IMG/VR virus record: IMGVR_UViG_3300013800_000004
Location: 1-64,000 of that record
Reading direction: 5' to 3' (one strand)
DNA length: 64,000 nucleotides
Source of the DNA: a virus
Taxonomy: Duplodnaviria; Heunggongvirae; Uroviricota; Caudoviricetes
Both the position numbers and the translations under genes were made by a program. Positions within the stretch are counted from its first letter, which is position 1, and the number at the start of each line of letters is the position of its first letter. The notes under the pieces are model-generated. The model saw only the letters and a list, made by a program, of their open reading frames with translations. It did not search any database and was not told where the DNA came from. Of the stretch, positions 32,206 through 49,690 are shown in pieces.

Positions 32206-33468
32206 ATGAACCCACCCGACCCGCTCACCTGTCCCGTCTGCACCCAATCCTTCAACACCCCCAAAGGGCTCCCAAACCACTTCCGGCATCGTCGGGATGC
32301 AGGGGACGCTCTGCACATCGCCTACGAGACCGCACAGGAGAACGCCCGGTGGGAGCACCTCACGGAGGGTGCCGACTATGTGCGGTGTCTGGAGTGTGGG
32401 CATCGTACGGTCACCCTCGCCCGCCACCTCAAAGGTGAGCACGGCATCACGGCGGACCAGTACCGGGTGAAGCATGGGACGCACACCCCTATTCGCTGCG
32501 ACGCCCTCAAGGCCAAGCGTGGGGCAGCCATCTCGGCGCGACCCATCACCAAGGGTGAGGTGAAACAGGTGTCGTGCCCGACGTGTGGAGGTACATGGGA
32601 GGGGTCAAAGTACCTTGGGGCAGTCCACGACCTTCGATGCCCTGTGTGCCGCGAACGGGAGTGGGAGGGGAAGTCGGAGCCCCAAGACTTCGTGACGTGC
32701 CGGGTGTGTGGCCACCGGGCCGAGAACCTCACGTCCCACATCACCAAGGACCACCCACACCTTCTGGGCACTTACCGCAATGCCTACCCCGGGGCAGAGT
32801 TGGTTGCTCTGTGTAGCCCTGTGAGGGACAAAATGGCGACCCGTGGGGTGCCCCGGTCGTTTGCATTCAAGCTCAGGGTCTCACAGGGGAAACTGGCATC
32901 TGGGTTCCGGCACTCAGCACGCTCCCGTGCGATGATGTCCACGTCTCAGAAGGCAGTGGGGCGTACGGTGCTGTTGAGCATGTCAGTGCTTGGTGGTTTT
33001 CGTCTCATGAACGGGAAAATCTCAGTCGGCAAGGCGATGTCAGGTTTGGGGAGGTGCCGTGAGGTGATCCGCCGAGAGTGCATCCGTCACGGGCTCGCGT
33101 ACCACAACTGCCTCGTGTCCCAGGACAGGTTCTTAGGCATTCTGTCTAGGATTCTCGGGTGTGAACCTCACCGGGAGTGGTCGTCAGACATGTTCGTGAA
33201 CCCGCGGTCAGGCAGGCGGTTCAAGTTCGACGGGTACTGGGAGTCACACAACCTCTTGGTGGAGTTCCAGGGTTACCAGCACAGGGTGTACCCCAACAGG
33301 TTCCACCACACGGAGGAAGACTTCATCGACGCCCAGTGGCGAGATGATGAGAAACGTCGTCAGGTAGCAGTAGGGACCCACCGCTACCTGGAGGTCCACG
33401 ACCATGAGCCCTGGGGGGACGAGACGTACCTCCGTGAACGTCTTCGTGCCCTTGGTCTCCCTGTCTGA
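32206..33468 (+). CDS. Free-standing nuclease with multiple C2H2/C2HC zinc fingers and a C-terminal PD-(D/E)xK Vsr/DUF559-like domain; paralog of 479..1957
   Basis: Fingers LTCPVCTQSFNTPKGLPNHFRH, VRCLECGHRTVTLARHLKGEHG (MucR/Ros-like), VSCPTCGG…, VTCRVCGHRAENLTSHITKDH. C-terminus RFKFDGYWESHNLLVEFQGYQH…DAQWRDDEKRRQVAVGTHRYLEV. Confidence 0.6.
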   Translation: MNPPDPLTCPVCTQSFNTPKGLPNHFRHRRDAGDALHIAYETAQENARWEHLTEGADYVRCLECGHRTVTLARHLKGEHGITADQYRVKHGTHTPIRCDALKAKRGAAISARPITKGEVKQVSCPTCGGTWEGSKYLGAVHDLRCPVCREREWEGKSEPQDFVTCRVCGHRAENLTSHITKDHPHLLGTYRNAYPGAELVALCSPVRDKMATRGVPRSFAFKLRVSQGKLASGFRHSARSRAMMSTSQKAVGRTVLLSMSVLGGFRLMNGKISVGKAMSGLGRCREVIRRECIRHGLAYHNCLVSQDRFLGILSRILGCEPHREWSSDMFVNPRSGRRFKFDGYWESHNLLVEFQGYQHRVYPNRFHHTEEDFIDAQWRDDEKRRQVAVGTHRYLEVHDHEPWGDETYLRERLRALGLPV

Positions 33469-34479: not shown

Positions 34480-35250
34480 ATGCCTGCCCACCCTACCCCA
34501 CTTGGGGGTCTCTACATCATCCGTCTGTCAGACACCCACTACTATGGTGGGCGATCCACCAACTGCCCTCTCCGGTGGAAAACCCACCTTCGTGACCTGA
34601 GGGCTGGCACCCACGACAACAGCCGGATGCAGGCGGTGTTCAACATCCATGGCCGGTTCGAGCCTACTGTGACTGTTCCTTGGACTGAGGGGCTGGACCT
34701 TCGGGCGGTGGAACAGCAGTGGTTGGACGAGAACTTCCGCAAACCGGGCTGTGTGAATCAGGTCTGTACGTCTGACGGAGGCGGCGGAAAATGGTCCGAC
34801 GAGCAAAAGGTGAAACGCCGTTCTTTTCTGGATTCGCACCCAGATGTGCTGGACAAAGCCCGAGAGGTGTTGAGGAAACACCACGCCCAAGCGGTTGCGG
34901 AGTCCAAGGTGGTCAGGCAACGCCCTGGTGGCTACACCAAGATCATCGAACTGAACCGGGCACGGGCTGGTGTCCCGCAGAAGCCTGAGCATGTAGCCCG
35001 GCGTGCAGAGTCCAACCGCGGACGCAAGAACACCGCTGAGACCGTCCAACGGATGTCTGAGTCGGCCAAGGTCCGCGCCCAAGCACACCCGACGGTTCAC
35101 GGCGTGGGCACCCGGGAGCTCATCTCGTCACAGCAGCGTGGCCGGGTGTGGGTCCACAATGCGACTATCAACCGTCGAGTGTGGCCCCACGAGGCTCAGG
35201 AGCTCATGTCTCAAGGCTGGGAGCCCAACAGGTTGCCCAACCGTGTCTGA
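34480..35250 (+). CDS. GIY-YIG homing endonuclease (256 aa)
   Basis: GLYIIRL…YYGGRSTN…RWKTH…NSRMQAVFNIHG, the canonical GIY-YIG/R/H/N signature. Free-standing between tail genes. Confidence 0.7.
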   Translation: MPAHPTPLGGLYIIRLSDTHYYGGRSTNCPLRWKTHLRDLRAGTHDNSRMQAVFNIHGRFEPTVTVPWTEGLDLRAVEQQWLDENFRKPGCVNQVCTSDGGGGKWSDEQKVKRRSFLDSHPDVLDKAREVLRKHHAQAVAESKVVRQRPGGYTKIIELNRARAGVPQKPEHVARRAESNRGRKNTAETVQRMSESAKVRAQAHPTVHGVGTRELISSQQRGRVWVHNATINRRVWPHEAQELMSQGWEPNRLPNRV

Positions 35251-37678: not shown

Positions 37679-40600
37679 GTGACATTCAGAGCCAAAGCGG
37701 ATTTCTCAGACATCCTCAAGCAGGCCGAAGCTGTTGGGAAGCAGTCTGGCGATCTGTTCTCCAAGGCGATGTCCAGTTCCCTTGGTGGCAAGGACTTCTT
37801 CAAGGCCCAGTTTGCCAAGTTTAGCGCCTTCCAGAAGAAGATCGACGAGGACCGTAAGAAGTTCCTTGCGGATCAGGCCTCGATCACCAAGCGTCAGCAC
37901 ATCCTGGAACTCGCCAACTCTGGAAAGCTCCAGGAGCATCGGGAAAAGGCCGAGATTGAGCTTGACAAGCTCCGAACCAAGTTCGCCAGGGCCGTAGAGG
38001 CGCGTGACCAGAAGGAGATCGACAGCCTCAAAGAGCAGCGCAAGGCCCATGAGGACATTCTCGCTGTTGTCAAGGAGTACAGCAGTGACAAAGACAAGTT
38101 CACCAAAGACCTGAAGCAAGCGACCAAGGACTTTGACGACACCGTCGCGTCCCTGAAGGACGCGACGGGCAAAATCAAGCTGTTGTCAGGCGTCGGCGGG
38201 GCCATTGCGTCTGCTCTTGACATCGGGTTCGAGAAGGCTGGTGACAAGCTCACTGACGTTGCAGAGAAGATGGGTGACATCTTCACCAACGGGATTGATG
38301 TCACCGACCTCACCAAGAAGCTGAGTGTTGGCCTCGGTAGGGGTCTCTCTCAAGCAGGGAAATCTATTTCTGCCACAGGGGGCAAGGGCGCGCAGGCTAT
38401 GGGCGCCCTCCTCGGCAGCGTCGGGATGTTGGTCGGAGCTCTGGGTGCCCTCGTCGGGGCATTCATTGGATTTGACAAGAAGGTCAAGGAGTTCAACAAG
38501 GGCGTCATTCAGACTCACGGTGCTCTGTCCCTGATGCGGCTGGGTGCAGGCAACTTGAACGATGGCCTGAACATCCTAAGAAACACAGTCACAAACCTTT
38601 CCAGCAACTTTGGGGTTTCAGAAGACGACGCCAAGACCCTGTTTGATGCCCTGGACAAGGGTGGCATCACCCTCACGAGCATGACACAAGGGACCAGTAC
38701 CGCGAGCGCAGCCTCAGATAGGCTGTCCGCGTCTCTCCGGGATGTCTACTCGGTGGCAAACGTGACAGGCGTTAGCTTGTCCGACTACACGGACAACTTG
38801 ACGAACTACGTCAATGACCTTGCGATGTCCACACAGACGGTGAATGACAGTTTTGCGTCCATTGCAAGCATGGCCAGCCAGAGCGCATTTGGAACCCGAC
38901 GGTTTTACTCGATGGTGGTTCAGGCCACGCAAGGTCAGACATCGTTGAACACCCGGCTGGAGGACACGGGAGACCTTCTACTGCGCATGTCCAAGATCAT
39001 GGGGCAGAAGAAAGCCACAGAGGCTGTGGGAGGGGCCAAGCTGTCCGATAAATCCACTCAGGATTTGACCAAGATGGTCATCCAGTCTCGTGGGGGGATG
39101 CGCCGCGTCATTGAGCAAGAAGCCCGCGCGACATCCGGCAACCTAGCCCGTCAAGCGTATGGCAGGGGTCAAGGTGTCGCGGCAGGGGGCGCAAGATCCG
39201 CCGTGGGTCGAGCTCTGACAGCAGCCCATTTGAGCACTGATATTGCTACTGCATTGGAGCAAGCTGGCATCTCTGGGGATAGCACGGCTCTGATCAATAC
39301 CATCAAAAGGATGAACCCGGAGGCTCAGGCGGACGCGATCACCGCGATGACCAACAGCACCGACCGTGGTGTGCAGGACACAGGTCGGAGGTTGCAGGAG
39401 GTGGTCACAAACATTCGTGGGATGACAGGGGGTATTGGGGCACAGACGGAGGCAATGGCCAATTTTGGCCCCCGCGGGTCGATCATGGCTGTCATGGCAT
39501 CTACCAACGGGGTCTTGGGGAACCTCATGCAGCAGAATGGGGAGATCAGCGAGAGCAACCTGATGGCGTTGGAAAACGTGTCTGGGTACAGCCGTGAGCA
39601 ACTTGCTTCAATGAGATCTCTCCTGAGAAACTCCAACGCAACTTGGCGTACCATGACCCGTATCCAGAGTACAACCAGTAACCAGACGGATGAAGAGGCC
39701 ATTGCCTCCGCTAGGACCAATGGGGCCATTGTCAGAAACGGTAGGATCGTCCAAGCCAGCGTTGATTCCATGGGGCACTTGATTGAGGGTGCTCAACTGA
39801 CATCTGCCCGTGACATGATCGCCAACGAAAACACGGCCCTAGATGCCACGGGGGAGGCCGCTCGTACAGCAATGGACGTGGCACAGGACACGATGGACGC
39901 TACGGTTTCCGTCGCGGACATCCTGGAGAACAAGGTCGCTCGCCTGATGCAGAGTCTGTATGAGGTGATTGAAGGTCCAATCCAGTCCGCCCTGTCATGG
40001 ATTATGGACAAGATGGGTGTCCCGGGTGGTGGGGATGCCCTCCGTCGCACGAGGGAGACAACACGGGCTATTGACGAGCGGATTGCACGTATCACAGACG
40101 CAAAGAAGATGACGGCATCGGGTATTGCAAGGCAGCGGGGCATCCTCTCACGGGCTGATTCAACAGAGGAACAGAAGGTTGCGGCAAGGGTTGAGATCAA
40201 GCGTCTTCAGACAGAAGCTGAAGGTCGCCGTGACAGCGTCCGAATCCAAGCTCTGACTGAAGCCCGTGAGCGTGTGCGTAGCGGAAACACCTACGACACA
40301 AGGGCGGCAGTTCCAGAACACCTCAGAGGACAGGCTGGTGGGGTGGAAGCTCAACTGTCTCCAGAGGTCGCCGTGGCCCGCATCATTCGCCGTGCGACAG
40401 GGACGGCAGCACCCACAGGCGCGACGCCCGCTGCGCCCACGACTCCAGGCACAGCTGCCGCAACCACGACCCCAGCCACGACCCCAGGCACGGCTGCACC
40501 CGCTGCGACGGTCCCGCCGCCTCCGCCGCCCCCGGCCCATGTGGAAGCCGCAACGGCACCCGTGGCGGAACGTCTGGACGACGCACAGACACAGGCACAG

Positions 40601-41128
40601 CAGCAACACGAGCGGACTCGCCGTGAGACACGACAGCGGGACCAGCGTCAGAACGTGTTCAACGAGAAGCTCATCAAGGGGAAAGAGCTCGGTGATGGTC
40701 TGGCCATGTCAAAGCTCCCAGACGCCATCGCGGAGGCGGACGCCAAGATGCGCCTCACGGAGGCCCTGTTCAAGAGCGGCAAGACCGCCGCGGATGTCAC
40801 CCGTATCTTGTCGGGGCAGAACCTCACCGCGGCGGACAGCACCCCTGAAACCGCTGGGCTTATTGGCGCCCGTACGTTCCGTGCCGCTGGGGTCAATGAC
40901 TTCATCTCACAGGACCGTGGTGGACGTACCATCATCACCCCAATCAACCGGGCCGACCAAGTGATGGGGATGAAGCCCGGGGGTCCGGTGGCGAACGCAG
41001 GTTCCCGCGGTGGGGGTGGCAACGTGAACATCTCCATCAACGGCGGTGACGAGCGCCGGGTGTTCGACGTGGTACGTCGGGCCATTCAGCAAGCTGGCAT
41101 CACCCCCAACCGCGTACCAGGGGGCTAA
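37679..41128 (+). CDS. Tape measure protein (1149 aa)
   Basis: GTG start with GAAAGG SD. Long helical Q/A/K/E-rich sequence, an internal P/T/A-rich linker, and a glycine-rich C-terminus. It sits between the chaperone-like genes and the minor tail genes. Confidence 0.7.
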   Translation: MTFRAKADFSDILKQAEAVGKQSGDLFSKAMSSSLGGKDFFKAQFAKFSAFQKKIDEDRKKFLADQASITKRQHILELANSGKLQEHREKAEIELDKLRTKFARAVEARDQKEIDSLKEQRKAHEDILAVVKEYSSDKDKFTKDLKQATKDFDDTVASLKDATGKIKLLSGVGGAIASALDIGFEKAGDKLTDVAEKMGDIFTNGIDVTDLTKKLSVGLGRGLSQAGKSISATGGKGAQAMGALLGSVGMLVGALGALVGAFIGFDKKVKEFNKGVIQTHGALSLMRLGAGNLNDGLNILRNTVTNLSSNFGVSEDDAKTLFDALDKGGITLTSMTQGTSTASAASDRLSASLRDVYSVANVTGVSLSDYTDNLTNYVNDLAMSTQTVNDSFASIASMASQSAFGTRRFYSMVVQATQGQTSLNTRLEDTGDLLLRMSKIMGQKKATEAVGGAKLSDKSTQDLTKMVIQSRGGMRRVIEQEARATSGNLARQAYGRGQGVAAGGARSAVGRALTAAHLSTDIATALEQAGISGDSTALINTIKRMNPEAQADAITAMTNSTDRGVQDTGRRLQEVVTNIRGMTGGIGAQTEAMANFGPRGSIMAVMASTNGVLGNLMQQNGEISESNLMALENVSGYSREQLASMRSLLRNSNATWRTMTRIQSTTSNQTDEEAIASARTNGAIVRNGRIVQASVDSMGHLIEGAQLTSARDMIANENTALDATGEAARTAMDVAQDTMDATVSVADILENKVARLMQSLYEVIEGPIQSALSWIMDKMGVPGGGDALRRTRETTRAIDERIARITDAKKMTASGIARQRGILSRADSTEEQKVAARVEIKRLQTEAEGRRDSVRIQALTEARERVRSGNTYDTRAAVPEHLRGQAGGVEAQLSPEVAVARIIRRATGTAAPTGATPAAPTTPGTAAATTTPATTPGTAAPAATVPPPPPPPAHVEAATAPVAERLDDAQTQAQQQHERTRRETRQRDQRQNVFNEKLIKGKELGDGLAMSKLPDAIAEADAKMRLTEALFKSGKTAADVTRILSGQNLTAADSTPETAGLIGARTFRAAGVNDFISQDRGGRTIITPINRADQVMGMKPGGPVANAGSRGGGGNVNISINGGDERRVFDVVRRAIQQAGITPNRVPGG

Positions 41129-42091
41129 ATGGCTGGCCAGTACATCATCCCGTCAGCGTTCGAGTCACCGTTTGACGAGTTCGACGGCAGCGGCAAGCGT
41201 CCTGTCGTGTTCGACATCATTGGCCCGAACCGGCGGGACTCCCTCTTGCCGCCCGACCTGAAACTGGTGCTGCACGTCAACCCCACCTCCATGGGGTTCA
41301 CCTACGCCAAGACCATCTCCAGGCAACAGACCCTTGCGGGGTGGGTGGAGTACCACTGGGGCAGCAACCCCACGGAGATCACCTTCAACATGGCGACGGG
41401 TGGTTTCGTGCGGTTGTACTCGGGGTTGTCCAACATCACTGGCCCCACCCCGTCCAACGACTTGATCCTCCCGGCGAGCGCCCGAGCCCGAGACGTGAGG
41501 GGCACCCGGCGAGACACCATCGCGTACGACAAGTACCTGGACATGTTGTCGCTGTTCCACAACAACGGGGCCATCTACGACTCCAAGGGTGCCATCGCAT
41601 TCCAGGGTCAAGTCCTCATCTCCTACGATGGGGGTTCATGGTGGGGCTGGTTCACGACCTTCTCCGTGGAGGAGACGGCTGAGAAGCCGTATCAGTTCGC
41701 CCTCACGGCGAACTTCACCGTGGAACGGGAGGTTCATCGGACCAAGAGCGTGTACATCCCGAGGGACATGACACGGGGACCGACGGCCCCCGCCCCCGCA
41801 GAGACACCTCGGCCTATCGGGGATGAAGATGGCACCGACGATATTCCCGATGACATTGCAGGGCCCTCCCCGACCGCAAACACGGCAATCCCGAGGCCGC
41901 CCCGTCGGGGTGGAGGGAGCGGGGGTGGGACAAGGCCCACACGGACCAGCACTGGCGCCACGGTTACCACAGCGCCCCCCGCGCAAGGTCAGCTTGCTCC
42001 GGCACCCGCTCCGGCACCCGCTCCGGCACCTAGTGGGGCTTCCGTTGGCGGTGGGTGGTACGAAGCTCCAGGGCGCGGCCCCTTGAGGTGA
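41129..42091 (+). CDS. Minor tail protein (distal tail/baseplate-like, 320 aa) with a (PA)6 repeat
   Basis: ATG immediately after the tape-measure stop. Confidence 0.55.
   Translation: MAGQYIIPSAFESPFDEFDGSGKRPVVFDIIGPNRRDSLLPPDLKLVLHVNPTSMGFTYAKTISRQQTLAGWVEYHWGSNPTEITFNMATGGFVRLYSGLSNITGPTPSNDLILPASARARDVRGTRRDTIAYDKYLDMLSLFHNNGAIYDSKGAIAFQGQVLISYDGGSWWGWFTTFSVEETAEKPYQFALTANFTVEREVHRTKSVYIPRDMTRGPTAPAPAETPRPIGDEDGTDDIPDDIAGPSPTANTAIPRPPRRGGGSGGGTRPTRTSTGATVTTAPPAQGQLAPAPAPAPAPAPSGASVGGGWYEAPGRGPLR
41996..42031 (+). repeat. (GCTCCGGCACCC)3 tandem repeat encoding (AP)6 inside the minor tail gene
   Basis: Direct reading. Confidence 0.6.
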
Positions 42092-42136
42092 ACACAGGTC
42101 GTGATGCCAGATGGCACTATAGTCTTCAGGTAATGA

Positions 42137-43372
42137 ATGACCAAGCCACTCCAAGCACCGGCTCAGTTTGTCGGGGTCCCTGACCCCCCCAACTTCTTCC
42201 GGTTCATCGACGTACAAGAGGGCATCCCGCTGGACGGGTCGAACTCCGACCTCCGGTCGTATTCGCCCTTCGTCATTCGGGTGCTACTGCCCTCCATCCT
42301 TGGTGGTGACAGCAACGCCCTGTTGCAGACCCAACAGAGCATCAACCGGGCGCCTGCTACGGGCACGGTGCGGAACGACAACCGGGACGCCGTGGCGTAC
42401 TCTGCGGCACAATCTGGTTCCCAGGGCGACCCCTCGGGTGCTGGCTCGTACAAGAACCTGTTGAGCTTGGGCAGTGCCCTCCCAGGCCTGACGGCGGCAT
42501 CACAGGTCACCCTGGACGAAGCCTACAACCAAGCCCTGTTCAACCAAGTATACGGGCCAGCGGTCCGCGCTGCAACGCGCCCGCCCTCGACCACTGGGAA
42601 CAACGTGGTCACCCCAGCATTGTCCAACGACATCTCGGCCCTGTCCCTTGCGGTGCAGTTGAAGCAGCTGAGCAGCATCCCGCCGTTGCTCATGCTCATC
42701 AATCCGGCTTCGATGCAGACGACCTACACCAAGGTCGCACAGCACCAAAGTCGCAATCGCAACGGGTACATCTACGAGGCCTGGGGTGAGGAGATGCCCA
42801 AGATCTCATTCACCTTCAAGATCGGAGCGTACACCGCAGGGCTGGCCAACCCAACACAGAAGGGGTCTGTTGTGTCGGGGGTCCAGCGGGCGAGCCGCAA
42901 CGACAGCGCCGCGTACCAGCAACTCCAGAACATGCTGGCCTTGTACCAAGGAGGCACGTACCTCCAGGACACCATCACGAAGTCCAGGGCGTTCCCGATG
43001 GTGGGGAACTTGGCCATTGAGTACGACCAGATGGTGTACGTCGGGCACATGGAGAGCTTCAACTTCACCGACGACGAGACACACCCCCATGGCGGATTGG
43101 AGATCGCCATTGAGTTCGTCGCGAACAAGGTGTTCGACGTGGCCGAGGCTCCCGGTACCATCCTCCCAATGGAGAACCCCGCTCTACCACAGGACCGCAA
43201 CCGAGGGGCACTCTCTCGCTCGGGCACTGGAAACAGGGTGTCGTTCTTCAGTGTTCCAGGTATCGGCGGAACCAACCCCGCAGCACAAACTGCCAACCGA
43301 GCTTGGCAGAGTGTCGCACAGCCCAGCCCACAGCCCGGACAGACTTCGGGTGTGTTCCTCACCCGAAGGTGA
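42137..43372 (+). CDS. Minor tail protein (411 aa)
   Basis: ATG with AGGTAA upstream. In the structural gene order. Confidence 0.55.
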   Translation: MTKPLQAPAQFVGVPDPPNFFRFIDVQEGIPLDGSNSDLRSYSPFVIRVLLPSILGGDSNALLQTQQSINRAPATGTVRNDNRDAVAYSAAQSGSQGDPSGAGSYKNLLSLGSALPGLTAASQVTLDEAYNQALFNQVYGPAVRAATRPPSTTGNNVVTPALSNDISALSLAVQLKQLSSIPPLLMLINPASMQTTYTKVAQHQSRNRNGYIYEAWGEEMPKISFTFKIGAYTAGLANPTQKGSVVSGVQRASRNDSAAYQQLQNMLALYQGGTYLQDTITKSRAFPMVGNLAIEYDQMVYVGHMESFNFTDDETHPHGGLEIAIEFVANKVFDVAEAPGTILPMENPALPQDRNRGALSRSGTGNRVSFFSVPGIGGTNPAAQTANRAWQSVAQPSPQPGQTSGVFLTRR

Positions 43373-43403
43373 TCGACCATGTCCATCCAGAACAGGCCCT
43401 AGC

Positions 43404-44240
43404 CTATGCGGCTACCAGGGTGCCTTCGGTAGATCGTGCCAGGGCCGCAAGTCGTTCCGCTTTCTTTCGCCGCTTGGTTTCGATGATCTTCTGTCGCTTT
43501 TCGGGTGTGCATGGCCGACCCTTGAGCGCGGCAGCTATCCGGTCACGCTGCTCCACGGTAAAAGTCCGGCCTTTCCCCTTGGATGACAGTTTGTCCCTGG
43601 TTTCCTGACTGACAGGTGGCCTAGAACGGGCCGACATGGACATTTTTTCACGGGATTCTTGGGATGGGTGTTTCCCACACAGCTTCGCTCTGTGTTCCGG
43701 GGACAACTCCCTGCCCATCAGGGCTTTCGATTTTCGAGCTCGTGTTTCATCTGACTCAGGCGGTCGTCTAAGACCAGCGGCAGATATTTTGGCCCTGTGT
43801 TCCGGCGTGTGTTTTCGACCTGTGTGCGAGGCCAGGAGCTTGGCTGCGTGTTCCGGTGACAGGCGTTTCCCTTTGTGGGACGCAGCGATCTTCGCCCGAT
43901 GCTCAGGGGTCAGTTTCATGCCCGGTGTACCACCCAGCCCACCTTCTGTGATGTTGTACCCGTTAGGCGCTCGGGTCACCAGAAAGTTGATCCAGTGAAT
44001 TTCCTTGGCACTCAACTCATCCGCCGACGATGCCGTGTCGATGACCCGCACAGTAAAATTGGTCACGCCGTATTTCCCCATTGAACGGCTCAAAGCCCAT
44101 GGCTCTTTTCCAGCGCAGTTCACATGCTCTGACCACCTGAGCCCCACCCCACGGGTGGTCTGCCCAACGTACTGTTTCCCGTTGATTGTGCATGTGATGA
44201 CGTAGACCTCCCCGTAGGGCTTGGGCTCCGCGGGGGTCAC
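43404..44240 (-). CDS. GIY-YIG homing endonuclease with tandem NUMOD3-like SPEHRAK repeats (278 aa)
   Basis: YGEVYVITCTINGKQYVGQT…RWSEH…NGYNITEGG plus about 7 repeats of (L/H)(S/T)PEHRAK(I/L). On the opposite strand to the surrounding tail genes. Confidence 0.7.
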   Translation of the reverse strand: MTPAEPKPYGEVYVITCTINGKQYVGQTTRGVGLRWSEHVNCAGKEPWALSRSMGKYGVTNFTVRVIDTASSADELSAKEIHWINFLVTRAPNGYNITEGGLGGTPGMKLTPEHRAKIAASHKGKRLSPEHAAKLLASHTGRKHTPEHRAKISAAGLRRPPESDETRARKSKALMGRELSPEHRAKLCGKHPSQESREKMSMSARSRPPVSQETRDKLSSKGKGRTFTVEQRDRIAAALKGRPCTPEKRQKIIETKRRKKAERLAALARSTEGTLVAA

Positions 44241-44392
44241 TTCCCCGCCTCCGTCCGTTGGGTCTTCAGCATCGCGGCGACCACGAGGTCCCGGATGATC
44301 GCAGAGGTTGTGGAGCGTCGTCGGGCGGCTTCCTCACGAACCCAAGCCGAGACATCATCCGGGAGGTAGACCTTGGTGTGTTTGGTTTCCAT
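44237..44392 (-). CDS. Ribbon-helix-helix (Arc/MetJ/CopG-like) DNA-binding protein, about 51 aa (below the ORF-track cutoff)
   Basis: METKHTKVYLPDDVSAWVREEAARRRSTTSAIIRDLVVAAMLKTQRTEAGK*. Its stop overlaps the GTG start of the GIY-YIG gene. Palindromes lie immediately upstream. Confidence 0.45.
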   Translation of the reverse strand: METKHTKVYLPDDVSAWVREEAARRRSTTSAIIRDLVVAAMLKTQRTEAGK

Positions 44393-44398
44393 GTCAGA

Positions 44399-44417
44399 CA
44401 GTACCCATCCGGTACTG
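44399..44417. promoter_or_regulatory. Inverted repeat CAGTACC-catcc-GGTACTG immediately upstream of the RHH gene start; putative operator
   Basis: 7-bp perfect inverted repeat with a 5-nt spacer, 6 nt from the RHH ATG. Half-sites TACC/GGTA. Confidence 0.35.
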
Positions 44418-44420
44418 GGC

Positions 44421-44441
44421 CGGTATCAACAATCTACCGGA
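44421..44441. promoter_or_regulatory. Second inverted repeat CCGGTA-tcaacaatc-TACCGG in the same intergenic region
   Basis: 6-bp perfect inverted repeat sharing the GGTA/TACC half-sites. Confidence 0.3.
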
Positions 44442-44494
44442 TTACCTCCAGCCGCCCTAGACCGCCTATCTCACCAGAGGGGTAAGGTCCATCA

Positions 44495-47400
44495 ATGTCC
44501 ATCCAGAACAGGCCGTATGCGGGTACGTGGCAGGCGAATCGGCGTGTTTGCGTGCAGTGGACGCCCGACTTCCAAGTCTATGTGAATGGGGATACAGGAT
44601 TGCCTGGGTGTCCTACTTGCCACCATAACATCGACCTCCAGGAGTTCATCAACAGCATCTCTGTGGATTTCGGGGTGGAGCCTGGAGCGTCCAACTGCTC
44701 CATCGGGATGTCCATCCCGAGGCACTACGGGGATTCCATCTTCAGGGATGGCAACACCCTCCTTCGTCCGGGGTTGGAGGTCCACGTTTACTTCCGTGGG
44801 TACTTCCCCATGAAGGGGATGTCCACACCCAACTCCAGGCCTGTCGCTGGGATTGATCTCGGGGACATCCCGCAGTACCCCTACTACCCCGTATTCCACG
44901 GCGTGGTCACGTCGGTTACCCACGAGTATTCCTCGGGGTTCTTCACCGCCAACATGACCTGTAACGGGATGCTGCACTTCTGGGAGCACATGAAGCTCTC
45001 AGGGGCGGGCGGTGGTTCACACTTTGGCGCTCGCCCTGCCAACAGTGGTATTCAGACCACCCTCACGGGCCACCCGATGACGGGCAAGACCCCGTACGGG
45101 ATCATCTACTCCTTGTACAGGGACACGGCGGGCGCAGCGGATGGTGTGGGTTTCGCCTTGCAGTCCCGCACGAACCTCAATGCAGTCAACAGCACGACCC
45201 GCGACCCGCTGTACGCTCTGACGCTCCGGTACTGGGAGCAACGGTTCCGTGGGAAGATCTACGGCCTGCGTATGCACGGCGCATCCGGCCAGATGTTCAC
45301 CTCGTCGCAGCAAGCGTACCTCTCCCTGTATGGGCGGAGTTCCACATCGTTCGCAGGGTTCCGCGGCACCGGGAGCGTGAGCCCAAGCGGGGGCTTCCCA
45401 AATGACGACATCTACGCTCAAGACCCAGTGTTTCTCCTGGGCCTCAATGCCAGGACGGCAGACGGTCGGATCTCTCGTCAGGCTGACACTGCACTCTTGG
45501 CCGCCGAGAACGAGGGGAGAAACTCTCACAGCCTTGACGTGTCCGCGCTCCAGGCGTTCCCCACGGACATCGGCTCGTATGGACAGGTGAACCTCTGGGA
45601 GAGCACCTACGAGTCCAAGATGGACATTGCCACGGCGGTGACCAACGTCTGCGGCTACGAGTTCTACCAGGACGCTGACGGGGACTTGGTGTTCAAGCCC
45701 CCGATGTACAACCTGGACACGAGCTCCTCGCGGGTCTATCGCATTGAGCCCGAGGACATCGTCTCGATCAACTTCTCTGAGAATGAGCCCGCAGCCACCT
45801 ACTGTCTCGTGAAGGGCGGGGCGTTTCAGAACATGCGCGGGGTGGTGGACGAGTCCGAGTGGGGGTGCCGGTCCCAGTACATTGACTACAAGTTGGTGGC
45901 TCAGTTTGGTTGGATTGAGACATCGGTCGAGAGCACCTACTACACCAACGCCCGCTCTGCGTTCTACTTTGCGATCAACCACCTGGACCGCATCAATGCG
46001 GGGACAAACGGGGCGACGGTCACGATCCCAATGCGCCCCGAGATCCGTCCTGGATACCCGGTGTACATCCCCCACATCGACTGCTTTTACTACGTCACAC
46101 AGGTTGCCCATGCGTTCAACCTTGGGAGCGAGTGCACGACCACGCTCACCCTCACAGCGCGTCGGCGCAAGTTCTTGGCACCTGGGAGCAATGCGAACAC
46201 CAACGTCGCACTAGACCAGGACTTGTCGGCTATCAACCTTGCGAACACCGATGGGCCTGTTCGCCCCCTTCAGGAGATCGACAACAGCGGGTCACCAAGG
46301 TTGGTGGGATTCCCCAACGTGGTGATGGCCATCGACCCCACGCGCATCAACCCGATGTTCCAATCTCTCGGGTTCCAGGCCGTCGAGAACGAGCTCACCA
46401 GGGAGTCCCGCCGCGGAGGCGATCACACCCAAAGTAGAGCTCGCCAACGGACGTTCGCGATCCAACTCGTTCAGGCTTTGGTCGACATGAGGCGGATCAC
46501 TCCGGTCAACCAGCCCACGACGGGGCCACTGCAACCCCCCTCCAATGGCGGGAACACAGTTACCCTGAACGAGTCCCAGGTGTACACCGTAGCGGGGTTC
46601 CCTGGGGCGGGGGCGAACGGTCTTGGGGTGACGCTCGCGGACATCATCCGTGCCCTCGGGGACTACATCACCACTCGGAGAACCATCAGGGATGCCCTGA
46701 CCCTGTTGAACAGGGAGGAAATCCAGGCACAGAACGAACTCAACCGCCTTCTTGGTCGCAATGCTGCGGCTCAACGGGATGTGAACGGGACAGGGACCAC
46801 CCCGGTCTCGGAGGATGACATCACCAGGGCTAGGGAAACCCTCAGGACTCGGCGGGAGAGGACCGCGGCTCTCCGTGCGAACTTTGACTCAGCCCCCCCG
46901 GATGCAACCCGTGAGCAGTTGGTGAGTCAGTACAACACCATTGCAGCCGCGGTGAATACTGTTCAGGGGGACGGTCGCCAACGAAGCCGTCTGCACATTG
47001 CCGAGACCGGGGGGAGGGATGCTGCCCAGGCCAACAACGTCATCCTCATGTCATACCTCATGGGGCAGTATCGGGTGGGCGGGAGCAACACGGGGGACAC
47101 CCGCACGGACCCCTCTGGGATGATCAACGAGTCGGCCAATCTTCTCCAGATGCTGTCTGACCGCAAGGCGTCCTTGTCCCTCACCACACCGGGGTACTAC
47201 CGATACTACTCGGCGTCCCACCCCAACCCCGACATGCAGGGGTACCTCCCCGTGAATCTCACCGAGAGTGGTGGCAGCGAGTCTACTGCTGCTTCCGCAC
47301 CCGTCAATATCGTGAGGCGTTCCAATAGGGAAATTGACCGGGCTGGAGGATTTCTTCCGATGGCCAACCAAGGGGCCGTGGATAGAGTGAACACCCGGAT

Positions 47401-49690
47401 GTCTCTCTCCCAGGCAGCAGCCTACTTGGTTCAGGCTTGGAACCGGGTTATCCGTGAACCCCCCGCATCCAGAGAGATCATCGAAATCCTCCTGGCGCAA
47501 TGGTCGCACGAGACGGGCAGTGGGAGGAGCATGATGAACAATAACTTTGGGGGGTTGAAGTATGGCGGAGGTGGGTTTGGCACAACCTACAACACGCATG
47601 AAACCAGGAATGGGGTGCGTGTGGCAACAACAGACATGTTTCAGGCATATACAACACCTGAGAGGGGCGCGGCCCACTACGTCCAATTTGTGACAGACCA
47701 CCGCCACGTTGCATCTGTCGTGCAGTATCTCCAGCGTCCTGGAGACGCAATGGCTTTTGCCCGGGAGATGAGTCGGGTGGGTTACTTCACAAGTAGCCCG
47801 GATGTCTATGGCGCGGACTTGCAGGGTCGCCTGAATGGCATCCGTAGGGCCGGGGTGCTGAACAACTTGCCGTCTATTGCAGGCCCCTCGGACCCAGCAT
47901 CCGCCCCTCGGGCACCTCGCACGTCCGAGACAGCAACCACCACCCCAGCGTCGAGCTACAACACCGTGGTGGTCCGCGCTGCGGCCATTGACAGCAACAT
48001 CCCCGAGGAACGTCGTGGGAGCTACGTCAGGATTGATCCGAACCACACCCCTGCCAAGGGGCTGAAGGTTCGGGTGATGGAGCAGCGGGCGCCCATGGTC
48101 ATTCCTACGAACCTCATCTACTCGATGACGTTTGAGGCCCGTGGGCAGGTGCGATCCACGCCAGTGTCTGTCCCCACCCACCATGCAGCCCCCACGGGTG
48201 AGATGGTGTCGTTCATCAACTCCTGTCGGAACCCCCGAGCCAACGACCCCTTCATCCGCTCCCTCTCCAGTGCGTTTGCGGACAGGGTGGGGGATGCAGG
48301 ACTCTCCGCAGGGAGGACCACACCCGAACAGGTTCGGGCACTCATCGCTCTCGCCGTCAATGGGATCGAGAACCTCCGCACCTCTGAGGGTCTCATCCAA
48401 GGGACGCCTGTTGCCGTTGCCACGTCACCGGCAACAGGCGCACCTACGCAGGGAGAAGTTGAGTCGTTCCTGGCACTCACGGGGACATCAACACCAGCGC
48501 CTCGACCGGCGTCAGGGGGGCCTGAAGTGCCATTGGTGACTCCCATCTACAACATCACCAACGGTGTGCCCAACGATTTTGACCCGTCGGGAACCCCGTC
48601 GGTCCGTGGGTCAGAGGTTGCCCGCTCAGTCCTTACTGCAAAAGCCCGCGCTCTCGTGGTGGACGTGACCCAGGCGAACTCCACCAACCTCAATCGTGCT
48701 CTTGCGATCTACAATCGGGCTCGCCCGCGCAACCAGAGGACTTTGAGTGCGGCAGACGCCGCAGAGGCTCAGGAGTACATTGCTCCTTGGATTGAGTCGC
48801 TCACGGCTCTGTTTAGGGGCCAGCCTCCAGGGCAGCGTGGAATCTTCGTCCAAAGGTCAGACGTGCGGATCGTGGAGAGCTCAGACCATGAGGAGTTCTC
48901 TCCTGTGTTCCCGGTGTCCGACGAACGAGGATTTGAGCACTACGGCTCGTTCCAGTACGGGCGAGGGTTGTCCATCGAACCCGGTGGCAACTACGAGCGC
49001 CTCATGGCCAGCGACCCGCTGCGGTATCTCACGGACGCCCAGCGGGAGCGAATCCTCCGCACCCTCAACCAAGGGGGCGATGCAGGCCGCACGGCGGGTA
49101 CGACGGCATTCAACGAGGCCGCCACCGCCTTGGCTAGCTCCCAGGAGCCCGAGGTCCAAAGCTGGATCCAGTACATGGAGAACGAACAGCCCAATGGCGA
49201 CCGGACGACCATGATTGCCAACGGCTTGCGCAACTACCTGATGTCAAACCGGGATGCTGTCACCAAGATCCCGGTGAACAACGCGGCTTACCGCCTCGCG
49301 GACCTCACTCCGATGGGTCAGCCGGACACCTGTGCTTGCAGGGGTGCTGAGTCCGATCTGCTGCTGGCCGCGTACATGGCGGGGTCTTCAGGAATGACTC
49401 AGATCGTTTCCACGGAGGAGGAGGCCCAGGATTGGGTCAGTTCCCAGATGGTCCAGGCATCCGTGGCATGGGCTGATACGCAGTCCAAGATGCGTGGCAT
49501 GGCGATGGAGCAAGGTCGGCGTTCACTCTTGGACTCGGTTCAGGGGTGGGGAACCGTAGTCAACGACTTCCGGTCGGCCAACCGCAGTCAGGGGGCACAG
49601 GGGCAAGCGGCCGGGGACCGGGCTGGGGCTCTGGGTCAGAACGTCGAGACCTTGTTCACGTCTCCGACCATCCCTCCCCGCGGCCAGTAA
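44495..49690 (+). CDS. Giant tail-associated protein (1731 aa) with a FlgJ-like glucosaminidase (peptidoglycan hydrolase) domain
   Basis: …LAQWSHETGSGRSMMNNNFGGLKYGGGGFGTTYNTHETRNG… at about nt 47490-47700 matches the glucosaminidase motif. Downstream of the tape-measure and minor tail genes. The antisense ORFs 45017..46111 and 47051..48400 are artefacts. Confidence 0.7.
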   Translation: MSIQNRPYAGTWQANRRVCVQWTPDFQVYVNGDTGLPGCPTCHHNIDLQEFINSISVDFGVEPGASNCSIGMSIPRHYGDSIFRDGNTLLRPGLEVHVYFRGYFPMKGMSTPNSRPVAGIDLGDIPQYPYYPVFHGVVTSVTHEYSSGFFTANMTCNGMLHFWEHMKLSGAGGGSHFGARPANSGIQTTLTGHPMTGKTPYGIIYSLYRDTAGAADGVGFALQSRTNLNAVNSTTRDPLYALTLRYWEQRFRGKIYGLRMHGASGQMFTSSQQAYLSLYGRSSTSFAGFRGTGSVSPSGGFPNDDIYAQDPVFLLGLNARTADGRISRQADTALLAAENEGRNSHSLDVSALQAFPTDIGSYGQVNLWESTYESKMDIATAVTNVCGYEFYQDADGDLVFKPPMYNLDTSSSRVYRIEPEDIVSINFSENEPAATYCLVKGGAFQNMRGVVDESEWGCRSQYIDYKLVAQFGWIETSVESTYYTNARSAFYFAINHLDRINAGTNGATVTIPMRPEIRPGYPVYIPHIDCFYYVTQVAHAFNLGSECTTTLTLTARRRKFLAPGSNANTNVALDQDLSAINLANTDGPVRPLQEIDNSGSPRLVGFPNVVMAIDPTRINPMFQSLGFQAVENELTRESRRGGDHTQSRARQRTFAIQLVQALVDMRRITPVNQPTTGPLQPPSNGGNTVTLNESQVYTVAGFPGAGANGLGVTLADIIRALGDYITTRRTIRDALTLLNREEIQAQNELNRLLGRNAAAQRDVNGTGTTPVSEDDITRARETLRTRRERTAALRANFDSAPPDATREQLVSQYNTIAAAVNTVQGDGRQRSRLHIAETGGRDAAQANNVILMSYLMGQYRVGGSNTGDTRTDPSGMINESANLLQMLSDRKASLSLTTPGYYRYYSASHPNPDMQGYLPVNLTESGGSESTAASAPVNIVRRSNREIDRAGGFLPMANQGAVDRVNTRMSLSQAAAYLVQAWNRVIREPPASREIIEILLAQWSHETGSGRSMMNNNFGGLKYGGGGFGTTYNTHETRNGVRVATTDMFQAYTTPERGAAHYVQFVTDHRHVASVVQYLQRPGDAMAFAREMSRVGYFTSSPDVYGADLQGRLNGIRRAGVLNNLPSIAGPSDPASAPRAPRTSETATTTPASSYNTVVVRAAAIDSNIPEERRGSYVRIDPNHTPAKGLKVRVMEQRAPMVIPTNLIYSMTFEARGQVRSTPVSVPTHHAAPTGEMVSFINSCRNPRANDPFIRSLSSAFADRVGDAGLSAGRTTPEQVRALIALAVNGIENLRTSEGLIQGTPVAVATSPATGAPTQGEVESFLALTGTSTPAPRPASGGPEVPLVTPIYNITNGVPNDFDPSGTPSVRGSEVARSVLTAKARALVVDVTQANSTNLNRALAIYNRARPRNQRTLSAADAAEAQEYIAPWIESLTALFRGQPPGQRGIFVQRSDVRIVESSDHEEFSPVFPVSDERGFEHYGSFQYGRGLSIEPGGNYERLMASDPLRYLTDAQRERILRTLNQGGDAGRTAGTTAFNEAATALASSQEPEVQSWIQYMENEQPNGDRTTMIANGLRNYLMSNRDAVTKIPVNNAAYRLADLTPMGQPDTCACRGAESDLLLAAYMAGSSGMTQIVSTEEEAQDWVSSQMVQASVAWADTQSKMRGMAMEQGRRSLLDSVQGWGTVVNDFRSANRSQGAQGQAAGDRAGALGQNVETLFTSPTIPPRGQ

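Follow-up and report, generated by a model that had tools for sequence, protein, structure and literature searches.

The window analysed here, which comprises positions 1 to 64,000 of the virus record IMGVR_UViG_3300013800_000004, carries a two-gene unit in which a gene for a 51-aa ribbon-helix-helix (RHH) protein precedes and overlaps a gene for a GIY-YIG/NUMOD3 homing endonuclease; the unit, referred to below as the cassette, lies between genes for proteins of 411 and 1731 aa, and the coordinates of these features are collected in Table 1. Comparison with related phages indicates with high confidence that the cassette is a mobile endonuclease unit gained by gene conversion, having been copied, along with 56 nt from the start of the 1731-aa gene, from a donor resembling the contig L015 into a genome resembling the contig L002. 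As an overall explanation we favour, with moderate confidence, a mobile endonuclease that travels as a two-gene unit with an Arc-like RHH protein, which would repress its own operon.

The related phage contigs were retrieved with orthologues of the 411-aa gene. L002 (IMG/VR 3300020576_000809) shares about 99% identity with the window across 14 kb but has no cassette: the window sequences from 40448 to 43401 and from 44495 to 47274 align to contiguous L002 sequence, which contains a single copy of the 23-mer (ATGTCCATCCAGAACAGGCCCTA) with which the 1731-aa gene begins (start codon and first seven codons). In the window the 23-mer forms a direct repeat (22 of 23 positions identical) that brackets the insert, and insert and repeat together add 1116 nt relative to L002. 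L015, the endonuclease of which is 96% identical to that of the window, represents the cassette-bearing donor type. In a three-way alignment the window was 100% L002-like up to 43401, 96-98% L015-like from 43402 to approximately 44550, and L002-like afterwards, and from these switches the transplanted tract, made up of the cassette and the 5' end of the 1731-aa gene, was put at about 1,150 nt. The donor-type sequence following the repeat is CCGTATGCGGGTACGTGG; of the 36 positions from 44515 to 44550, 15 are different in L002, among them five successive third codon positions at which the change is synonymous. The GC content of the inserted segment is 58.3%, compared with 62.7% for the window, and the GC content at third codon positions (GC3) is 0.62 in the endonuclease gene, compared with 0.75-0.78 in the flanking genes. 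The cassette was also absent from the more distant L001 (the 485-kb uncultured phage LR745208), L004 and L005, in which the two flanking genes are adjacent and 3-50 nt apart, and it was present in L003, L006-L022 and L115 (ERZ724522 NODE-1091). The original prediction had taken the unit for a mobile cassette, and its absence from L002 and from three distant relatives bears this out, as the unit is not universally conserved in syntenic position. These comparisons also show that its acquisition by the window genome is recent.

The left copy of the repeat, which matches the one copy at the empty site of L002 in every position, now encodes MSIQNRP followed by a stop codon (TAG, 43400-43402); this decayed pseudo-start is also found in L015, indicating that the duplication belongs to this cassette variant. 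An extension of the repeat beyond 23 nt, proposed by eye (TATGCGGcTAC), was rejected because its local alignment score was reached in 611 of 2000 shuffles. A search with the 23-mer matched only L002's own contig in IMG/VR and nothing in the JGI metagenomes. The leader that the cassette supplies to the 1731-aa gene is conserved in all cassette-bearing relatives, and the 5' end of that gene is the probable homing region. The cassette had been described as lying between tail genes and on the strand opposite to its neighbours. Strand and position are as described; the tail assignment is tentative, the evidence for it being a glucosaminidase domain and weak tail/hub PHROG matches in the 1731-aa protein, and PHROG and Pfam gave no matches for the 320-, 411-, 1149-, 1465- and 1808-aa proteins. 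In L006 (5716-6303), and also in L008, L009 and L011, an extra gene for a 195-aa protein (DUF8280 in the precomputed Pfam annotation, no match in our own scan) separates the endonuclease gene from the 411-aa gene, which argues that the junction is an insertion hotspot.

The 278-aa endonuclease matches Pfam GIY-YIG (9e-8) and NUMOD3 (8e-11), PHROG 314 'homing endonuclease' (1.5e-40) and TIGR01453 (88.4 bits; cutoff, 56). Its catalytic domain spans residues 9-100, and it retains all of the columns that are invariant in 33 homologues (Y13, Y24, G26, R35, H39, E80 and N96). Residues 111-260 hold nine NUMOD3-like repeats of the form x-[ST]-x-E-x-R-x-K, and not about seven as had been counted from the sequence at first; the C-terminus is shorter than in the 304-aa relatives. 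An Rfam scan of 42800-45000 detected no group I intron and no other family at E<=1, on which ground the gene is considered free-standing, and it is intergenic, between two genes on the opposite strand. The predicted overlap of the RHH stop codon with the GTG start of the endonuclease gene is present, the two sharing GTGA (44237-44240), while relatives overlap as ATGA. This overlap, together with a GGAGG Shine-Dalgarno sequence inside the RHH gene, suggests that translation of the endonuclease may be coupled to that of the RHH protein. A terminator-like hairpin (43290-43309, minus strand; CTGCCAAGCTCGGTTGGCAG and then TTTGTGCT) is situated some 95 nt beyond the endonuclease stop codon, antisense to the 411-aa gene; it is also present in the cassette-free L002, and the number of such sites (3 found, 1.6 expected) is within chance.

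Assignment of the 51-aa frame to the RHH fold, which had been proposed from the letters alone, is supported by three kinds of evidence. The frame matches Pfam RHH_1 (E=3e-4; 21.1 bits, with a gathering score of 20.5), and its relatives match RHH_1, RHH_5 and FitA-like_RHH; the family profile matches the RHH domain of VapB26 (E=8e-4), the best sequence match of solved structure; and an AlphaFold monomer model, made with three sequences, has an extended N-terminus and helices at residues 12-25 and 30-50 (predicted local distance difference test score, 82). The RHH domain occupies residues 6-43, and the remaining 8-residue tail is the most variable part. Pairwise ratios of nonsynonymous to synonymous differences (pN/pS) are about 0.2-0.3 (for the window and L016, pS is 0.66 and pN 0.19), and the amino-acid replacements concentrate in the last eight residues; the RHH gene is under purifying selection. 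The likely base-contacting residues of the strand are H5, K7 and Y9. No Shine-Dalgarno sequence was found before the RHH ATG. Close homologues formed only two clusters among 5.8 billion proteins, and a search of metagenome and genome collections with a closer RHH alignment returned only the same clade and L116, an unrelated longer RHH protein.

Among the contigs examined, the RHH gene was never found without an adjacent nuclease gene. The approximately 25 related contigs that carry it belong to the same phage clade and have it at the same junction, with a GIY-YIG gene overlapping the RHH stop codon in each. A second phage clade (L024, L033 and L044) has, at another locus, GIY-YIG/NUMOD3 genes preceded by genes for RHH proteins 39-47% identical to that of the window. 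In L044 (1331-2300) the RHH gene is intact and a frameshift splits the GIY-YIG gene that comes after it (open reading frames 1387-1629 and 1572-2300), so that the endonuclease is apparently decaying while the RHH gene is preserved. In a set of 80 diverse IMG/VR loci with related endonucleases this RHH occurred at only two (L033 and L044), which makes the pairing of RHH and endonuclease a minority arrangement.

Upstream of the RHH gene, two perfect inverted repeats had been reported. Both are present, CAGTACC (44399-44405) with GGTACTG (44411-44417) and CCGGTA (44420-44425) with TACCGG (44435-44440), 7-48 nt upstream of the RHH ATG; they are, however, not conserved as palindromes, because the outer positions of the arms vary among relatives. 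Each arm of the two palindromes corresponds to one of four phased (G)TA(C) boxes, which read, on the cassette strand, GGTAG (44435), GATAC (44424), RGTACY (44413) and GGTACT (44402). Among seven cassette variants 14 of 48 operator columns vary, none of which falls in the 19 core positions (P=1.6e-4, post hoc), the invariant cores being GGTAG, GATAC, GTAC and GGTAC. The four-box phasing occurs once in the 64 kb, against 0.005 expected from mononucleotide shuffles for a pattern that was defined post hoc. Two GTAC boxes with the 11-bp spacing persist in the divergent cassettes of L016 and L115, GGTAG boxes are repeated upstream of the RHH genes of the L024 clade, and GGTAG/GGTAC-type boxes recur upstream of the RHH genes whose products are 39-47% identical to that of the window. 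Arc, Mnt, MetJ, CopG and omega bind short repeats that are spaced one helical turn apart. Given this behaviour of the family and the conserved phased boxes, on which the case for repression rests, it appears reasonably probable that the RHH is a DNA-binding protein that would repress its own operon through the four boxes.

The donor-type recoding at 44523-44526, inside the 1731-aa gene, creates GGGTACG and hence a GTAC box that is not found in the L002 allele; L016 has GGGTACT at the corresponding place. This box is out of the 11-bp phase of the four operator boxes, and it may be coincidental, GTAC occurring 4.5 times per kb.

According to the explanation that we favour, the endonuclease would cut the cassette-free allele near the start of the 1731-aa gene during co-infection, a site-specific cleavage that we infer, and repair would use the cassette-bearing genome as the template. 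RHH dimers would bind the four boxes, one helical turn apart and directly upstream of the RHH gene, and would thereby repress the RHH-endonuclease operon, so that the nuclease, its translation coupled to that of the RHH protein, would be present only briefly or at a low level.

Several observations count against this explanation. The box pattern and its statistics were set after the sequences had been seen. A scan for sigma-70-type promoters between 43200 and 44700 found nothing, so that promoter occlusion through overlap of operator and promoter is an assumption; a candidate picked by eye (TTGATA and TACTGT) was rejected because its elements, 20 nt apart, are too far from each other, and a leaderless RHH mRNA is a matter of speculation. 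The RHH_1 score is marginal and barely clears its threshold, and a Foldseek search with the RHH model ranked the RHH proteins ParD, CdbA and NikR first, but at non-significant values (E>1). The GTG start and the truncated C-terminus raise the possibility that the endonuclease might be weakened. Donor-type recoding at the start of the 1731-aa gene is no evidence of immunity specific to this endonuclease, as L115 combines the same sequence type with a different endonuclease body. Finally, mosaic patches that distinguish the window from L002 are located far from endonuclease genes, at 39373-39580, 40306-40448 and 47143-47925, and therefore general recombination could have carried the cassette without the nuclease acting.

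Ordinary homologous recombination between co-infecting phages, with an endonuclease that is inactive or irrelevant and an RHH protein that mainly controls the 1731-aa gene through the divergent intergenic region, is an unlikely explanation that these patches, which contain no endonuclease gene, would fit. The shortened, GTG-initiated endonuclease of the window and the frameshifted gene beside an intact RHH gene in L044 point in the same direction, and the operators lie 55-96 nt upstream of the ATG of the 1731-aa gene, for which the cassette supplies both leader and ribosome-binding site (RBS), a layout resembling the divergent promoter regions bound by the Arc proteins of IS605. In contrast, one end of the transferred tract coincides with the edge of the cassette and the other lies 56 nt outside it, as would be expected for break-initiated conversion, and the endonuclease has kept all of its catalytic residues. 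The constant presence of a nuclease gene beside the RHH gene also argues against passive transfer, as does the replacement of at least four endonuclease lineages by one another at a single junction, which is likewise seen in T4-like phages.

The mosaic patches themselves indicate that short-patch recombination is common in these phages. The patch at 39373-39580, in the 1149-aa gene, is a run of approximately 25 mostly period-3 substitutions relative to L002, and at 40306-40448, in the same gene, a 142-nt segment of the window does not align with a 205-nt segment of L002. In the 1731-aa gene a stretch of about 640 nt (window 47274-47925; L002 10022-10652), which is preceded by a run of mismatches at 47143-47266, does not align, although the two genomes are elsewhere 98-99.7% identical and the blocks that flank it 98.2-99.6% identical. 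The non-aligning stretch covers the glucosaminidase domain (residues 997-1111), which suggests a domain swap.

The inverted repeats might, instead of binding protein, form hairpins in the RNA transcribed from the cassette, with a proximal stem 6 nt ahead of the RHH AUG that would limit translation initiation; we regard this as distinctly unlikely. Both stems appear in the predicted centroid fold, the proximal helix is 100% pairable in seven variants, and two variable positions (A-U to G-U and C-G to U-G) keep the pairing only on the cassette strand; moreover, RBS-sequestering hairpins control homing-endonuclease genes of T4 (PMC2988022). However, compensatory double changes are lacking, and the values observed are matched by shuffles. 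Folding is no more stable than expected by chance (z=0.15; 104 of 200 shuffles did at least as well), and the RHH gene has no Shine-Dalgarno sequence to sequester. The same substitutions give the direct repeat GGTACTG-N4-GGTACTG, which fits protein boxes equally well, and the exact 11-bp phasing of the four boxes is without an RNA rationale.

An RHH protein that acts on DNA is also favoured by the modular structure of the cassettes. At least four endonuclease bodies, which are 40-75% identical to each other, occur at the junction: 278 aa in the window and L015, 304 aa in L016, 197 aa in L003, L006-L011 and L115, and 262 aa in L012-L014 and L017-L022. Relative to the 197- and 262-aa variants, the sliding identity of the window is 90-100% across the operators, the RHH gene and about 75 nt at the start of the endonuclease gene, and it drops to 35-60% in the remainder of that gene. 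The relationship with L016 is reversed, with 60-70% identity in the RHH gene and 85-90% in the N-terminal half of the endonuclease. L115 (2880-3725) is a three-way mosaic that joins an L015-type start of the 1731-aa gene and leader to an L016-type RHH (75% identical to that of the window) and a 197-aa endonuclease. The reassortment of regulatory module and nuclease body favours an RHH that acts on DNA over one that fits a particular nuclease, and the operator-plus-RHH segment, which is 90-100% identical between genomes in which the endonuclease bodies share only about 40-50% identity, behaves, as far as these alignments indicate, as a portable expression platform.

Related RHH genes are also linked to nucleases of another type. 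Two TnpB genes in IMGVR_UViG_3300029288_000082 (161 kb) are preceded, with the same 4-nt overlap, by genes for RHH proteins that are 49-54% identical to that of the window (L030, 2992-4328, and L031, 2953-4292); the RHH proteins are 47 and 45 aa long, and the TnpB proteins are of about 400 aa (OrfB_IS605 and Cas12f1-like TNB). TTGACA-N17-TAnnnT-like promoters upstream of these RHH genes are placed so that the RHH mRNA could be leaderless, and no (G)TA(C)-type boxes were found upstream of the TnpB-linked RHH genes, the strand residues of which differ.

A more tentative extension, to which we give a low probability, is that the conserved mobile unit is the operator-RHH platform rather than the endonuclease: a self-repressing promoter module would be shared by recombination among at least four GIY-YIG lineages, with a related form at TnpB, and would allow a burst of nuclease on entry into a naive genome, followed by shut-off. 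Since the platform supplies the leader and RBS of an abutting essential virion gene, the RHH might gate that gene, making the cassette hard to lose.

The exchange of partners bears equally on the idea that the RHH and the endonuclease form a toxin-antitoxin-like addiction pair, in which the RHH would neutralize the nuclease by contact as well as repress the operon, and loss of the pair would be harmful. The order of the genes is that of a type II operon, with the small RHH gene first, a 4-nt overlap and repeats upstream; among solved structures the RHH profile matches the antitoxin VapB26 best, ParD antitoxins lead the fold matches, albeit at non-significant values, and Arc-like RHH genes often adjoin toxin-antitoxin genes. 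Nevertheless, we consider the idea quite improbable. The 51-aa protein consists of a DNA-binding domain only, without the C-terminal extension that holds a toxin. Instead of a fixed pair, one near-identical RHH (at least 90%) is associated with endonuclease bodies 40-96% identical, the converse applies in L016 and L115, and RHH homologues serve the unrelated TnpB nucleases; association of one RHH with divergent endonucleases and with TnpB argues against a co-evolved protein interface. In addition, PADLOC and defence-system libraries gave no match for the RHH and only generic 'homing endonuclease' models for the nuclease, and the cassette is cleanly absent from close relatives.

The opposite polarity, in which the cassette is ancestral and was lost from L002 by recombination between the 23-nt repeats, an event that would leave one copy as seen in L002, is very improbable, because a simple deletion would have kept the window type after the repeat, whereas L002 has there the type common to L003, L006, L012 and the empty sites of L004 and L005, and over the next 33 nt the window is of the L015 type, differing at 14 positions, and because the whole tract from 43402 to 44550 is L015-like in an otherwise L002-like genome, the GC3 of the cassette is atypical, and the more distant relatives have empty sites.

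Table 1. Features of the cassette and its flanks (positions in the window).
Feature	Positions	Strand	Description
Upstream flanking gene	42137-43372	plus	411 aa, no known family; stop codon 3-9 nt from the downstream start codon in cassette-free relatives
Left 23-nt repeat copy	43379-43401	plus	Ancestral start position of the downstream gene
Inserted segment	43402-44494		1093 nt, not in L002
GIY-YIG homing-endonuclease gene	43404-44240	minus	278 aa, GTG start, free-standing
RHH gene	44237-44392	minus	51 aa, ATG start, Arc/CopG-like, putative repressor of the cassette
GGAGG Shine-Dalgarno sequence of the endonuclease gene	44248-44252	minus	In the 3'-terminal part of the RHH gene; 7 nt upstream of the GTG
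Putative operator	44399-44440	minus	Four (G)TA(C) boxes, TA at 44402, 44413, 44424 and 44435, exactly 11 bp apart
Leader from the cassette	44441-44494	plus	Replacement RBS GAGGGGTAAGG at 44477-44487, for the downstream gene
Right 23-nt repeat copy	44495-44517	plus	Functional start of the 1731-aa gene
Co-converted tract	44495-44550	plus	First 56 nt of the 1731-aa gene, donor (L015) type
Downstream flanking gene	44495-49690	plus	1731 aa, glucosaminidase domain at residues 997-1111, weak tail/hub PHROG matches

Two further genes of the window were noted. A second GIY-YIG-like gene (34480-35250, plus strand; 256 aa) matches PHROG 314 (1.1e-12) and Pfam GIY-YIG (22.2 bits; cutoff, 22.6); it shares the strand of its neighbours, and no RHH gene precedes it. 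Upstream of a block of structural-like genes, a 420-aa protein (32206-33468, plus strand) has a Ros/MucR zinc finger (Pfam, 5.3e-13) and a weak HNH match among the PHROGs.

If the model of an autorepressed mobile endonuclease holds, the cassette would be a compact natural test bed for the restraint of selfish nucleases, with one small repressor, a 42-bp operator and interchangeable endonuclease bodies, and with naturally sampled genomes that are recipient-like (L002), donor-like (L015) and the product (the window). It would also extend to phage homing endonucleases the repression by Arc shown for IS605, and would provide defined DNA sites for binding and cleavage assays. No new category is created, as earlier work has described free-standing GIY-YIG genes, co-conversion and homing endonucleases with Arc-like neighbours; this locus adds sampled genomes of the recipient-like, donor-like and product types, an operator-RHH platform common to nuclease bodies that can be exchanged, and a specific candidate operator of four boxes.

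The cassette shares with the SegA-G genes of T4-like phages an intergenic GIY-YIG gene, presence/absence polymorphism, co-conversion and replacement of the endonuclease at a locus, as well as overlapping start and stop codons that suggest translational coupling (PMC2988022, a review by Edgell et al.). Free-standing GIY-YIG genes, intronless homing, co-conversion and such replacements belong to the textbook picture of T4-like phages. The view, taken in the original prediction, that homing-endonuclease genes are normally unregulated is not borne out by the T4 genes, which are subject to I-TevI autorepression, RBS hairpins and translational coupling (PMC2988022). The SegA-G genes differ from the cassette in having no dedicated repressor gene, their control residing in phage promoters, RNA structures and coupling to host genes. 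Their cleavage sites are up to hundreds of bp from the gene, whereas the converted tract of the cassette ends within 56 nt; furthermore, the cassette runs opposite to the adjacent genes and provides the gene downstream with a leader and RBS. Edgell, Derbyshire and Belfort are said to have reported in 2004 that the I-TevI endonuclease itself represses transcription. In both I-TevI and the proposed cassette model, GIY-YIG expression is held down by binding at an operator near its own promoter; in I-TevI, however, the endonuclease is itself the repressor, by means of its own DNA-binding domain, while a separate RHH protein is proposed for the cassette.

The C proteins of restriction-modification systems are small DNA-binding regulators encoded upstream of, and often overlapping, the endonuclease gene; they act at repeated operators just upstream, and their autoregulation limits the nuclease or delays its expression once the system has entered a new genome. 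They are helix-turn-helix and not RHH proteins, and they govern restriction enzymes and methyltransferases, so that the analogy is functional only and implies no homology. The type II RHH antitoxins (VapB, ParD and CopG-like) resemble the cassette RHH in their N-terminal RHH domain and in an operon layout with autoregulatory repeats; unlike them, the cassette RHH is without a toxin-binding C-terminal extension, and its partner is a homing endonuclease and belongs to no known toxin family.

The remaining comparison is with the Arc proteins of IS605, which were first noted by Zedaveinyte et al. 2023 (PMC10690162) and which bind and repress IS605 promoters (Moon et al., bioRxiv 2026, 10.64898/2026.09.24.754181). 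Arc-like RHH genes adjoining homing endonucleases have been noted in two surveys (PMC10690162; bioRxiv 10.64898/2026.09.24.754181), so that the arrangement is less unusual than was supposed when the cassette was first described; an RHH-homing endonuclease pair of this sort is not known to have been dissected. The tested Arc proteins were compared with the cassette RHH by description; they carry N5, N7 and T9 as strand residues, whereas H5, K7 and Y9 are inferred for the cassette RHH, and they act at two motifs, in contrast to the four phased boxes of the cassette. In IS605 the partners are tnpA and tnpB, often divergently oriented, and in the cassette the partner is a co-directional GIY-YIG gene of a phage with a 4-nt overlap. 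Common to both is an RHH protein of about 50 aa encoded beside the nuclease of a mobile element, with repeated binding motifs, putative in the case of the cassette, in the adjacent intergenic region.

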